A stretch of DNA of 64,000 nt from Escherichia phage phiEco32. The notes below the pieces were generated by a model, which worked only from the letters and a program-made list of their open reading frames with translations, had not been told where the DNA came from and ran no database searches. Below, in pieces: positions 20,233 to 55,663 of this stretch. The translations under genes and the position numbers were made by a program. The DNA lies in the sequence record NC_010324.1. One strand, 5' to 3'. The stretch's first letter is position 1, and the number at the start of each line of letters is the position of its first letter.

Positions 20233-21718
<1,486 letters not shown>

Positions 21719-21979: not shown

Positions 21980-22238
21980 AATGCATCTCTTTATAAACGG
22001 TTTCCGTGTTCTTCTTCCAGTTAGATAAACCGGTAAGAACCCTCTGAGCAACTTCATCAGCTGCTCTATTTCTTTCAATCTCTAACTCTTGTTGATGTTT
22101 CTCTTTATCCAGATTACTGCTGTCTGTTTGATATTCGTTAAACTTCATACCACCAAAGAATACAAGAGCTGAGAAAACGATAAACCCTAAGTTATCACTT
22201 AACGTGTTTTGCATGTTGTCTCCAACGAAAAAAGCCAC
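21864..22238 (-). CDS. i-spanin candidate (N-terminal TMD plus coiled coil)
   Basis: 124 aa; single N-terminal TMD (LGFIVFSALVFFGGM) then charged helical periplasmic part (EKHQQELEIERNRAADEVAQRV...); lipoprotein ORF overlaps out of frame, as in Rz/Rz1 pairs. Confidence 0.4.
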   Translation of the reverse strand: MAFFVGDNMQNTLSDNLGFIVFSALVFFGGMKFNEYQTDSSNLDKEKHQQELEIERNRAADEVAQRVLTGLSNWKKNTETVYKEMHYEKTKPVFYNVCASDEYVSLFNERQQQAINALTNKPKS

Positions 22239-22250
22239 CCGGAGGTGGCT
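22224..22250 (-). terminator. rho-independent terminator (minus strand)
   Basis: On minus strand agccacc-uccg-ggtggcu followed by uuuuuucg; lies between the SSB stop and the spanin start. Confidence 0.55.
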
Positions 22251-22271
22251 AAGCTATAACAAGGAGAGTTA

Positions 22272-23018
22272 TTAGAATGGGCTATCGTTGTCGTCTTCGT
22301 AAGTAGAAGCAGGCTCTTTATCAATCGTAGGGATTGAAGGAGTAGCTTCTTTCTGCTCTGTTTCAGAAGCACGAGTAATTTCACGACCAGCCAGAGGCAT
22401 GTTCTTAGCGTCATTAGCTTGAGTAAGCAGGTTGCGCTGGAACGGGAACATCAGTTGATATGATGCTACGTTCTCATCGGTTTCAGCATACGGTTCGAAG
22501 AATACCAGAGGACTACGAGCTTCACCAACTGCTGCACGATATTTGGTTGGGATTGGAGAAATGGTCTTGATGGAGTTTTTAACTTCACCAGCTTTGTTAG
22601 TGTAAGAGTTAACCAGAATGTTAACAGGCTGGCCTAACAGAACATCCTTGAACCAAGACAGATCGCCTTTCAGTGCTTGAATACTTGGGTCAATCATCTT
22701 GCAAAGATCAAGAATACCAGAGTTCTTAGCTCGTGGGTTTACATCATAGCTCTTGAACTGGCAAGCCGGACGTGGTTCTAATGCCTTACCATCGGAATCT
22801 TTACCAGTAGCATCAACACCAATCAGCTCGAAAGCCAAATCCATACGGAAAGCCGGATTCTTAGGAGTCACTGCTTTGGTCTTCGGGTCAATCCAAGGGT
22901 CACGATTGTGAACACCCAAACCTACTACACGAACGATACGTGCTTCGTACTCACCATCAGGGATTACATCGTAGTTGGATTTACGGGAAGCAGTTGCGAT
23001 AGTTGGAATCATAGACAT
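22272..23018 (-). CDS. single-stranded DNA-binding protein candidate (T7 gp2.5-like)
   Basis: 248 aa; acidic C-terminal tail ending ...YEDDNDSPF (acidic tail with terminal Phe is the hallmark of gp2.5-type SSBs); preceded by a 400-bp promoter-like intergenic region. Confidence 0.45.
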   Translation of the reverse strand: MSMIPTIATASRKSNYDVIPDGEYEARIVRVVGLGVHNRDPWIDPKTKAVTPKNPAFRMDLAFELIGVDATGKDSDGKALEPRPACQFKSYDVNPRAKNSGILDLCKMIDPSIQALKGDLSWFKDVLLGQPVNILVNSYTNKAGEVKNSIKTISPIPTKYRAAVGEARSPLVFFEPYAETDENVASYQLMFPFQRNLLTQANDAKNMPLAGREITRASETEQKEATPSIPTIDKEPASTYEDDNDSPF

Positions 23019-23077
23019 ATTTTAATTTCCTTATTTAATTTGAAAGATTGTTGCTCTCTTTGAGCGGTTATGTATAG

Positions 23078-23086
23078 TATACATTA
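23078..23086 (-). promoter_or_regulatory. candidate phage promoter element TAATGTATA (minus strand)
   Basis: Exact 9-mer on the minus strand ~60 nt upstream of the SSB start codon. Confidence 0.3.
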
Positions 23087-23149
23087 CGCTTATACCGATA
23101 AGAGTACTATATAATATAAGTATCTTTGGTAGTAGATATATCACACTAG

Positions 23150-23158
23150 TAATGTATA
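23150..23158 (+). promoter_or_regulatory. TAATGTATA element in plus orientation inside the 23.0-23.4 kb intergenic region
   Basis: Exact 9-mer (TAATGTATATAT) pointing away from the SSB gene; no plus-strand ORF downstream; could drive an antisense or small RNA. Confidence 0.25.
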
Positions 23159-23594
23159 TATTGTATAGCTGATAAAGTTATTGCAGGCTTGTATATTGGG
23201 CAATTCATAGAATCCCTTGCAAGTACCGAAGGGCAGGAGCCACCTGCGAGATAAAAATAGAGAATTAAGGAATCCTTGATTTAGGTTGTAGGGACTCCTA
23301 GGGACTTTGATTCTCTATTTAAAAGAATAATAATTACTTATTACCTAAATAATTAACTAACTTACTTAAACCAAATTCAATTAGAATAGATAAAAAGATT
23401 ATTCCTAAGAAAGCTAAGAAGTAAATAATATAAGTTACCATTCAAGTAAACCTTTAAAGTTAGTTTGTTCTACTATCCTCTGATAACGAAGATTAGAATC
23501 AGCTTGTTTCTTTAACATCTCATTATATTGATCTCTGATAGAGTCTTTATAAACTACAGGTTCTTTAAATACTGAGATCTTCTTTTTCTCAGAG

Positions 23595-23810
23595 TTAGAT
23601 AGTACATCCATCACAGGTAAGATCTCCGAGAAGGGACAGTGATAACAAACGAGACTGCTCATCGCTATACAGTTGATCAATCTCTTCTTTAAGTTTTGCC
23701 AACTCAATGAAATTGATAAGTTGACCATGTTCAAGACAGTCTGTTTTTAGTATAAATAAAACTTCAGCGTCTGTTGAATCTTCACTTGAATATTTATCAA
23801 TGTATTCCAT
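23595..23810 (-). CDS. hypothetical small acidic protein
   Basis: 71 aa; AGGAG RBS 5 nt upstream of ATG. Confidence 0.4.
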   Translation of the reverse strand: MEYIDKYSSEDSTDAEVLFILKTDCLEHGQLINFIELAKLKEEIDQLYSDEQSRLLSLSLLGDLTCDGCTI

Positions 23811-24302
23811 TTTTACTCCTATTAATTATGACCAAGATTTAACTTTTACTTCGACGTATGTTTTAACTTCACCTTTCAAGACTTCCTGAGAAGCATTTGC
23901 ACTTTCCTCAGAGTGATGTACAACGGTGATCTCTTTCTTTCCAATCTTATAAGTGTGAATCCAAATCATACTTCTTCCTCATATTCCCAATTTCTTTCAT
24001 AATACCCAGAGTTGTAGTTTAGGGCGCACTTCTCGGCCTCTTCTATGTCGTCAGTGTTTAGGATATTTACCCATCCTCCAACTTCATCAAAACCTTCTTC
24101 TACTTCGTTAAACCATACACTATACTTTTTCATCGAGAAGTTCTTCCCCAATCTTTTACATAGCATCGACCGTTAACCCACTTTGTCTCTGACTTAAATT
24201 CCTGAGACAATCTCACTTCACAGTCTTCTCTACTGGCATCTCCTCCGATATCAATCAGATACAGGAATAGAGCTATACCTAAAGCCCAAAGAATTATCTT
24301 CT

Positions 24303-24695
24303 TCATCGAATCACCAAAGGCTCTTCAGAGTACACAGGAGCGGCTATTTCTACAGGAGGTGCTGCCCTAAGGTCATTAAGTCTTACGCCCTTCAGCATAC
24401 CGTCTAGGTGGTCCTTTTTGGGGATTCCAACAGGGAAGTCGTCAATCCAAATATCGACGAAGAAACCTAGCTGTCGACAGACCTCATCCTTCTGCACACC
24501 ATTACAAAAGATAATAGGAATCTGCAAACACTCTGCATCAATCTTAATGTCGTGATTATCGTACCCATTAGGCTCTGCAAAGCGATAAGTTACAAAGCGT
24601 ACATCGTAGCCCTTTTCTTGCATTAATGCCACCACAGAGCGCCACAGCTTTTTATCTGAGGTGTAAGTGTCATCGTAATCTAAGCCAATATTCAT
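24303..24695 (-). CDS. HAD-superfamily phosphatase-like protein (possible 5'(3')-deoxyribonucleotidase)
   Basis: 130 aa; N-terminal MNIGLDYDDTYT contains the DxDxT motif I of HAD phosphatases. Confidence 0.4.
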   Translation of the reverse strand: MNIGLDYDDTYTSDKKLWRSVVALMQEKGYDVRFVTYRFAEPNGYDNHDIKIDAECLQIPIIFCNGVQKDEVCRQLGFFVDIWIDDFPVGIPKKDHLDGMLKGVRLNDLRAAPPVEIAAPVYSEEPLVIR

Positions 24696-52796: not shown

Positions 52797-52873
52797 TGGC
52801 GCACCCTACAGGATTCGAACCTGTAACCGACGGATTAGAAATCCGATGTTCTGTCCAATTGAACTAAGGGCGC
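52797..52873 (-). tRNA. tRNA-Arg (anticodon UCU), CCA encoded
   Basis: Minus-strand cloverleaf: acceptor GCGCCCT/AGGGTGC (one G-U), D-arm GTTC-AATTGGACA-GAAC, anticodon loop UUUCUAA, T-arm ACAGG-TTCGAAT-CCTGT, discriminator G then CCA. Acceptor and T-arm match E. coli argU from memory. Confidence 0.85.
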
Positions 52874-55464: not shown

Positions 55465-55663
55465 ATTATTTACCCTTTATCAGAGATTAAAAGTAATATT
55501 ATTTAAGTAAGTTAAATTTAGTAAACTTATTTTCTAAGAAATTTTCAAAGGGTCTATATACAGAGCATTACCCATAGTCCCAGAATACTACCATCTTTTT
55601 CAATAAATTTACTAAGTGGTTGGTTTATAAAGGAATTTAGTTTGTCAAATCTGGCACTAGTGA

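Follow-up and report, generated by a model that had tools for sequence, protein, structure and literature searches.

In Escherichia phage phiEco32, a Kuravirus podophage and a model of host RNA polymerase takeover by gp36 and gp79, every gene near the gap upstream of the SSB gene is oriented on the minus strand, and this gap carries the promoter motif of the phage sigma factor on both strands, which raises the question of what a promoter that points away from its neighboring genes could serve. The analysis covered a 64,000-nucleotide stretch of the sequence record NC_010324.1 (the window; positions refer to it unless another genome is named), together with the corresponding region of related phages. 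The explanation that we favor, and regard as probable, is a pair of back-to-back gp36 promoters, of which P40 serves the SSB gene and the other, here called Panti, would give rise to a conserved noncoding RNA of ~160 nt that ends at a long hairpin (H3) and for which a cis-antisense role is preferred.

The SSB gene corresponds to the ORF at 22272..23018 (−; 248 aa), which is homologous to phiEco32 gene 40 and is recorded as an ssDNA-binding protein in some records. The sigma factor is encoded in the same window (ORF 20612..21259, −) and is identical at 214 of 214 residues to the gp36 chain (9m7y_F) of the cryo-EM open complex PDB 9m7y. An earlier sequence-only reading had described the region upstream of the SSB gene as a noncoding gap of 400 bp, of which only 23019-23333 (~315 bp) proved to be noncoding, the top ~100 bp being part of a hydrophobic 35-aa ORF (MVTYIIYFLAFLGIIFLSILIEFGLSKLVNYLGNK; 23334-23441, −) that is an annotated CDS in many relatives. 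This small ORF and the upstream ORF have 7 nt in common; the small ORF is missing from Paul, XT18, Bas86, Bas88, EK010, and ECBP2, where the phosphoesterase gene comes directly instead. Over the 2 kb around the gap, many Kuravirus genomes, including CHD5UKE1, SU10, and WFI101126, shared 95 to 98.5% identity with the window. The BLAST matches to SU10 and WFI101126 were broken into two or three pieces; both genomes possess an HNH endonuclease gene downstream of the SSB gene that is missing from the window (22240-22272) and a ~500-bp phosphoesterase gene upstream that is apparently missing as well (23435-23810). ARAGORN called a single tRNA-Arg at 52797-52873 and no tRNA in the gap, and matches to the sigma-70 consensus in the region stayed at chance level (6 versus 6.3 expected).

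Promoter motifs upstream of the SSB gene

In the published phiEco32 work, TAATGTATA is the consensus, established by experiment, of the promoters that polymerase with the phage sigma factor gp36 reads, and six such promoters are placed upstream of genes 6, 13, 26, 40, 58, and 68. Exact copies of this motif were located, as the sequence-only reading had reported, on both strands of the gap, at 23078-23086 (−) and 23150-23158 (+). Exact matches of this type (TAATGVATA) occurred four times in 64 kb compared with 0.8 expected, a number given by only 1 of 100 shuffles, and two of the four copies in the window lie in the gap upstream of the SSB gene.

Because gene 40 is among the genes with a published promoter, the minus-strand copy (23086..23078, exact consensus) was identified as P40, the middle promoter that drives the SSB gene in a gp36-dependent manner. 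Its AATG occupies positions −14 to −11 with a predicted start at ~23071, the SU10 supplement gives exactly the P40 sequence (aagcgtaatgtatactatacataaccgctcaaagagagcaa), and the element is unchanged in all aligned relatives. The motif and P40 are thus known biology already, a fact of which the earlier reading was unaware. P40 is overlain by a near-perfect palindrome, TTATGTATA-G-TATACATTA (23068-23086), which puts a one-mismatch copy of the motif on the plus strand across the P40 start region. Downstream, the 5′ untranslated region of the SSB mRNA contains a hairpin read from the sequence, GCUC-AAAGA-GAGC (23053..23065, −), beyond which lie an AU-rich leader and the ribosome-binding site. Hairpins of different sequence were observed at the same leader position in 7-11, GAP52, Privateer, and three uncultured phages with 67 to 70% SSB identity, examples from these distant relatives being GUCCA-AGA-UGGAC, GAAGAG...CUCUUC, and GGAAAC...GUUUCC. 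By analogy with T4 gene 32, the SSB leader hairpin could be an mRNA stabilizer or a translational operator.

The plus-strand copy belongs to a more extensive promoter. In the structural paper on the phiEco32 promoter P68 (cryo-EM open complex, PDB 9m7y), gp36 reads AATG at −14 to −11, and its C-terminal domain contacts −37G and −34A. Panti contains an exact consensus −10-type element, TAATGTATATA (23150..23160, +), with AATGTA at −14 to −9, and a −35 block, TTGGTAGTAGATAT (23126..23139, +), in which G23128 falls at −37 and A23131 at −34; the numbering of that paper places the predicted +1 at about A23165 (range, 23165 to 23168). The site with the −10 element AAATGTATATA at 33316 (−) was identified as P68 because it lies in the gap before a 109-aa ORF beside a Dps-like gene, and the 14-nt block TTGGTAGTAGATAT is found there (33341..33328) with the same sequence and spacing as at Panti. 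Within the window, the 11-mer GGTAGTAGATA occurred twice, at Panti and P68, in both cases 11 nt upstream of T or A followed by AATGTATATA. Panti therefore shares the −10-type element AATGTATATA and the sigma factor with both P68 and P40, whereas P68 alone also has the same −35 block and spacing. A consensus −10-type element, the −37G and −34A contact bases, and a cognate sigma factor encoded in the same genome are all found together at Panti. The divergent promoters proposed by the sequence-only reading were hence borne out at the level of motifs, both copies of TAATGTATA fitting the gp36 consensus, with one being P40 and the other having the full P68-type −35 and −10 elements.

Unlike the six published phiEco32 promoters, each of which faces genes, Panti runs against all neighboring genes, has no gene to express, and is followed by conserved noncoding sequence. 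It is missing from the SU10 promoter list and from the phiEco32 list in the form quoted by a later paper, and the new part of the present analysis, measured against these two lists, is Panti together with its predicted RNA. A seventh gp36 promoter of the P68 type that drives a noncoding RNA of ~160 nt is a well-supported prediction from the sequence. If true, it would add a noncoding RNA product to the six-promoter program, and Panti would offer a ready test case for the existing in vitro system of core polymerase, gp36, and gp79.

Conservation and distribution of the element

The region was taken from 26 relatives in the phage collection (Kuravirus, Suseptimavirus, and Nieuwekanaalvirus), IMG/VR, and metagenomes, with the IMG/VR and metagenome scans contributing only six new sequences. 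In the most divergent relatives, identity to the window was 84 to 87% for the adjacent SSB coding DNA and 64 to 69% for the spacer between P40 and Panti, and it reached 94 to 100% for the 94 nt at 23229-23322 (the 3′ domain of the predicted RNA). Panti was intact in 25 of the 26 relatives, the sole exception being a metagenome contig with a G-to-A change at −11, and the GGTAGTA of its −35 block was invariant in all 26. Conservation ends exactly at H3, with either the 35-aa ORF or the phosphoesterase gene downstream.

Some relatives differ around the promoters. In the exceptional metagenome contig (~8920-8935), AATATATA replaces AATGTATA, by which the critical −11 G is mutated and a perfect TATAAT hexamer is made; the downstream RNA region is intact. 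One group of relatives, including this contig and myPSH2311 (~440-650), has an insertion of ~130 bp between the two promoters, and in this group the start of a minus-strand ORF (MKFNHKYAATEKARAYV...) overlaps the −35 block of Panti and changes GGTAGTAGATA to GGTAGTATATC.

The element was absent from 7-11, GAP52, Privateer, LAh_8, Vp_R1, and three uncultured contigs with 67 to 70% SSB identity, and the distant relatives without it have just 50 to 240 bp ahead of the SSB gene. On the sequences compared, it appears to be restricted to Gordonclarkvirinae. In the three uncultured phages, a 170-bp region preceding the SSB homologue contains an invariant block of ~70 nt with AGCTA repeats (GGAAGCATCTAGCAAAGCTAGCATATCAAAGCTAAGCTAAGCTATATGC...), which takes the place of the element studied here and may be a promoter region for the sigma factor of those phages. 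Among the records inspected, none carried an annotation under Panti and the predicted RNA, which include the most conserved block of the region; the SU7 and 4E8 records annotate only a minus-strand promoter by the SSB start, plus, in 4E8, a hypothetical CDS (g037c; 437-631 of that locus) over part of the gap.

The distribution of conserved positions bears on the operator region that had been suggested along with the divergent promoters, and no support was obtained for an operator role of the palindromes. Control at the DNA level only, in which operators tune P40 and Panti is a competing or decoy site for polymerase with no functional product, is in our judgment very unlikely. The strong conservation of the primary sequence and the presence of several palindromes, including the one over P40 and another inside the P40 spacer (CTTAT-N4-ATAAG, 23089-23102), are in keeping with it. 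However, the conserved block lies 150 to 250 bp upstream of P40, past the other promoter, while the DNA between the two promoters, where operators would be expected, is the least conserved of all, and the palindrome over P40 is not kept in the Suseptimavirus relatives.

The predicted RNA and its fold

The noncoding RNA predicted downstream of Panti spans 23165..23322 (+), with a length of ~158 nt in the window and 156 to 187 nt in the relatives. It begins at the predicted +1 with the 17-nt hairpin H1 (AUAGCU-GAUAA-AGUUAU, 23165..23181, +), which is followed by a central cassette delimited from the alignments (23182..23228, +; ~47 nt in the version of the window) and by the 3′ domain with two further hairpins. 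The first of these, Hc (GCAGG-AGCCA-CCUGC, 23233..23247, +), has its sole variable base (C/A) in the loop, and the second, H3 (23255..23320), lies where conservation stops in the 3′ direction. The plus-strand form of H3 comprises 15 to 16 bp with two invariant G·U pairs, then 3 to 4 bp, and a last 4 bp closing an 11-nt loop, and three G·U pairs in H3 are invariant altogether; on the minus strand the hairpin is reduced to an 11-bp stem.

Every element listed in the sequence-only reading was confirmed in the sequence, the repeats lying within this unit. The palindrome AAGGA-A-TCCTT (AAGGAATCCTT) lies at 23267-23277, the direct repeat TAGGGACT at 23289-23296 and 23299-23306 (10 nt apart), and GCAGG-AGCCA-CCTGC at the Hc position, and CCCTT (23214-23218) can pair with AAGGG (23229-23233). 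The inverted arms AAATAGAGAAT (23255-23265) and ATTCTCTATTT (23310-23320) form 11 perfect pairs rather than 12 pairs ending in TTTT, base 23321 being an A; a repeat tool stretched this inverted repeat (23255-23320) to 14 nt at 93%.

Covariation was found at H1, a helix that had been missed in the sequence-only reading. Across 22 distinct sequences, double compensatory changes occurred at two of its pairs (UA/GC at one and CG/UA/AU at the other), and a third pair was GC in 12 and GU in 10 of the 22, the GU form becoming a C·A mismatch on the other strand. None of the 500 column shuffles and none of the slid controls reached the covariation score of H1, and the plain count of double-change pairs, which was two, was reached in 45 of the 500 shuffles. 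Covariation is limited to this one 6-bp helix, the other 29 pairs being invariant or nearly so, and the sample is confined to the subfamily, the distant relatives having no such element. The invariant helices Hc and H3 are neutral as to RNA structure, arguing neither for nor against it. Of the hairpins picked in the sequence-only reading, AAGGA-A-TCCTT and CCCTT/AAGGG turned out to be invariant or outside the consensus fold, and the real signal lay in H1. Compensatory changes of this kind are unexpected for a protein-binding site, which is a further point against control at the DNA level only.

The fold is also asymmetric between the strands. RNAalifold, run independently, recovered the same helices on the plus strand and lost H1 on the reverse-complement alignment; the consensus energies were −26.7 (plus) versus −24.1 (minus), with Hc and H3 being possible on both strands. 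In all 21 of the 21 relatives, the plus strand was more stable than the minus strand by 3.5 to 10.5 kcal/mol, and the window itself folded at −45.8 kcal/mol (z, −2.2) on the plus strand versus −35.3 kcal/mol (z, −1.8) on the minus strand.

Coding capacity was absent: 17 of the 22 RNA versions have no AUG or GUG start codon, and no plus-strand ORF of at least 30 aa was present. A coding reading was tried and rejected, since a 1-nt indel that separates groups of relatives interrupts the 20-codon TTG frame in the SU7 group. A search of Rfam with 23019-23434 from the window and four relatives, covering both cassette types, returned no family at E values up to 10, and no Kuravirus transcript data were found in the searchable literature. 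The small structured RNA that had been considered in the sequence-only reading is thereby supported computationally, as a conserved, folded, noncoding unit predicted to start at the +1 of Panti.

The central domain exists in two unrelated versions at the same place, A (~47 nt) and B (~75 nt). Since the cassettes are spread independently of H1 type and H3 version, recombination is indicated. Related phages have been collected for therapy, and among the 97 related genome records in the searched collection, 12 covered the full version B query; outside the phage group, version B gave only chance matches of 28 nt in ICP1.

On the plus strand, the bases next to H3 are UAUUUAAAA, with no U tract, and a scan for plus-strand terminators over 22000-24500 called none, for which reason the 3′ end of the RNA was placed from the limit of conservation alone; transcription from Panti may continue into a longer antisense RNA. 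The minus-strand hairpin is succeeded by a U-rich tail (UUUUUAUCUC; 23248..23257, −), which supplies UUUUUAU (U5) and is invariant in all relatives, and it lies past the stop codon of the upstream gene by between 14 nt (window) and 37 nt (Paul). Judging from this layout, minus-strand H3 with U5 may also end transcription of the upstream operon, as an atypical terminator.

The same features could be taken to mean that the block functions on the minus strand, with H3 and U5 forming an operon terminator or an RNase III-type site, the block being a 3′ untranslated region, and Panti being weak, silent, or incidental, which we judge to be quite unlikely. The short distance of H3 past the upstream stop codon, the invariant UUUUUAU, and the ability of Hc and H3 to form on either strand at similar listed energies (see above) would fit, but the terminator scan did not call H3 with U5, the stem being AT rich and enclosing ~44 nt. 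Moreover, an invariant, full P68-type promoter beside a fast-diverging spacer would be left unexplained, as would H1, in which 10 of the 22 sequences have a C·A mismatch when read on the minus strand, and the three invariant G·U pairs of H3 become mismatches on that strand. A minus-strand function and the favored noncoding RNA from Panti can both be partly true.

Possible roles of the Panti transcript

In the explanation that we favor, E. coli RNA polymerase with gp36 would start at Panti (~23165) in the middle phase of infection, and the transcript would consist of the 5′-terminal H1, an interchangeable central cassette, and an almost invariant 3′ domain ending in H3. H3 would be the end of the unit and, on the opposite strand with its U5 tail, would terminate the upstream operon. 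Read-through transcripts from the upstream genes would be met head-on by the predicted RNA, which is complementary to them over its whole length and would pair with them; such pairing could shield P40 and the SSB gene from this read-through and set the 3′ end of the upstream operon.

The closest known analogue of a cis-antisense role appears to be the OOP RNA of phage lambda, a 77-nt RNA from the interval between cII and the replication gene O that is transcribed in the direction opposite to the rightward operon. Like OOP, the Panti transcript would be a short RNA with its own promoter, counter to the operon and beside replication genes, and could pair with read-through mRNA. OOP stops at a standard terminator and shares sequence with a coding region, whereas the Panti RNA would be about twice as long and wholly intergenic, with a swappable central cassette and without a clear U-tract terminator.

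A cis-antisense role alone leaves the near-invariant primary sequence unaccounted for, and this near invariance therefore suggests a protein partner or a role at the DNA level. A further reading is a trans-acting middle-phase RNA, the 3′ domain of which would bind or sequester a protein of the host or the phage while the cassettes, shuffled between phages by recombination, set specificity, the RNA acting as a decoy or in anti-defense. We consider it improbable. A short BLAST search of the RNA for trans targets within the window gave chance-level matches only (≤12 nt), and the duplex energy against 228 translation-start regions was no better than that of shuffled RNAs (−40.0 versus a mean minimum of −38.6). 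Two other candidates were rejected, namely, a captured or mimicked host RNA, for which no match was obtained in 5,426 complete E. coli genomes at BLAST sensitivity, and a CsrA sponge, for which four invariant GGA triplets were counted (six to seven with cassette B), just one of them in a loop of the consensus fold.

A transcription-primed origin of replication is the main rival to the cis-antisense explanation, albeit an unlikely one in our estimation. The Panti transcript would then be a primer or pre-primer that forms an R-loop in AT-rich DNA and is extended by the phage DNA polymerase; by analogy with ColE1 RNA II, the RNA fold would aid hybrid formation or processing. Several features of the locus are compatible with this possibility. 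Panti is a promoter without a gene inside the replication block and adjoining the SSB gene, and of all 150-bp stretches in the 64-kb window, the one richest in AT (GC content, 0.20) starts where the predicted RNA ends. Directly 3′ of this RNA, the stretch at 23326..23440, which encodes the 35-aa ORF (−), has a GC content of 0.19 and is the AT-richest DNA of the window. The order of phage-specific promoter, RNA domain, and AT-rich DNA includes a candidate unwinding element, and the conserved primary sequence, the palindromes, and the direct repeat with its 10-bp spacing would suit protein-binding DNA. Against these points, the GC skew has no inflection here and tracks only gene orientation, and where relatives lack the 35-aa ORF, only ~40 bp of AT-rich sequence is left before the next gene. 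One group of relatives has a direct-repeat spacing of 9 bp instead of 10 bp, distant relatives with the same replication genes have none of the element, and the covariation of H1 together with the G·U pairs favors an RNA over DNA sites.

Known replication origins provide a similar balance of likeness and difference. The T4 origins oriF and oriG and the T7 primary origin consist of a promoter followed by an unwinding element, and T4 oriF/oriG and T7 phiOL/phiOR include phage-specific promoters used for replication and not for expressing genes. Panti resembles them as a phage-specific, middle-type promoter without a gene and with very AT-rich DNA beyond it; however, the T4 and T7 origins have no conserved, folded RNA of ~160 nt before the AT-rich DNA. 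ColE1 RNA II is a folded pre-primer, the structure of which decides hybrid formation at the origin. The Panti RNA would likewise fold and lie ahead of a zone where initiation may occur, but it shows no similarity to RNA II in sequence or in Rfam and has no known RNase H-type processing site. If the RNA does prime replication, the origin of this phage group would be located.

The second AT-richest stretch of the window lies at 55465-55663 (GC content, ~0.22) in a gap of ~200 bp between minus-strand genes, and a one-mismatch copy of the gp36 motif, GAATGTATA (55367, −), adjoins it, inside an ORF.
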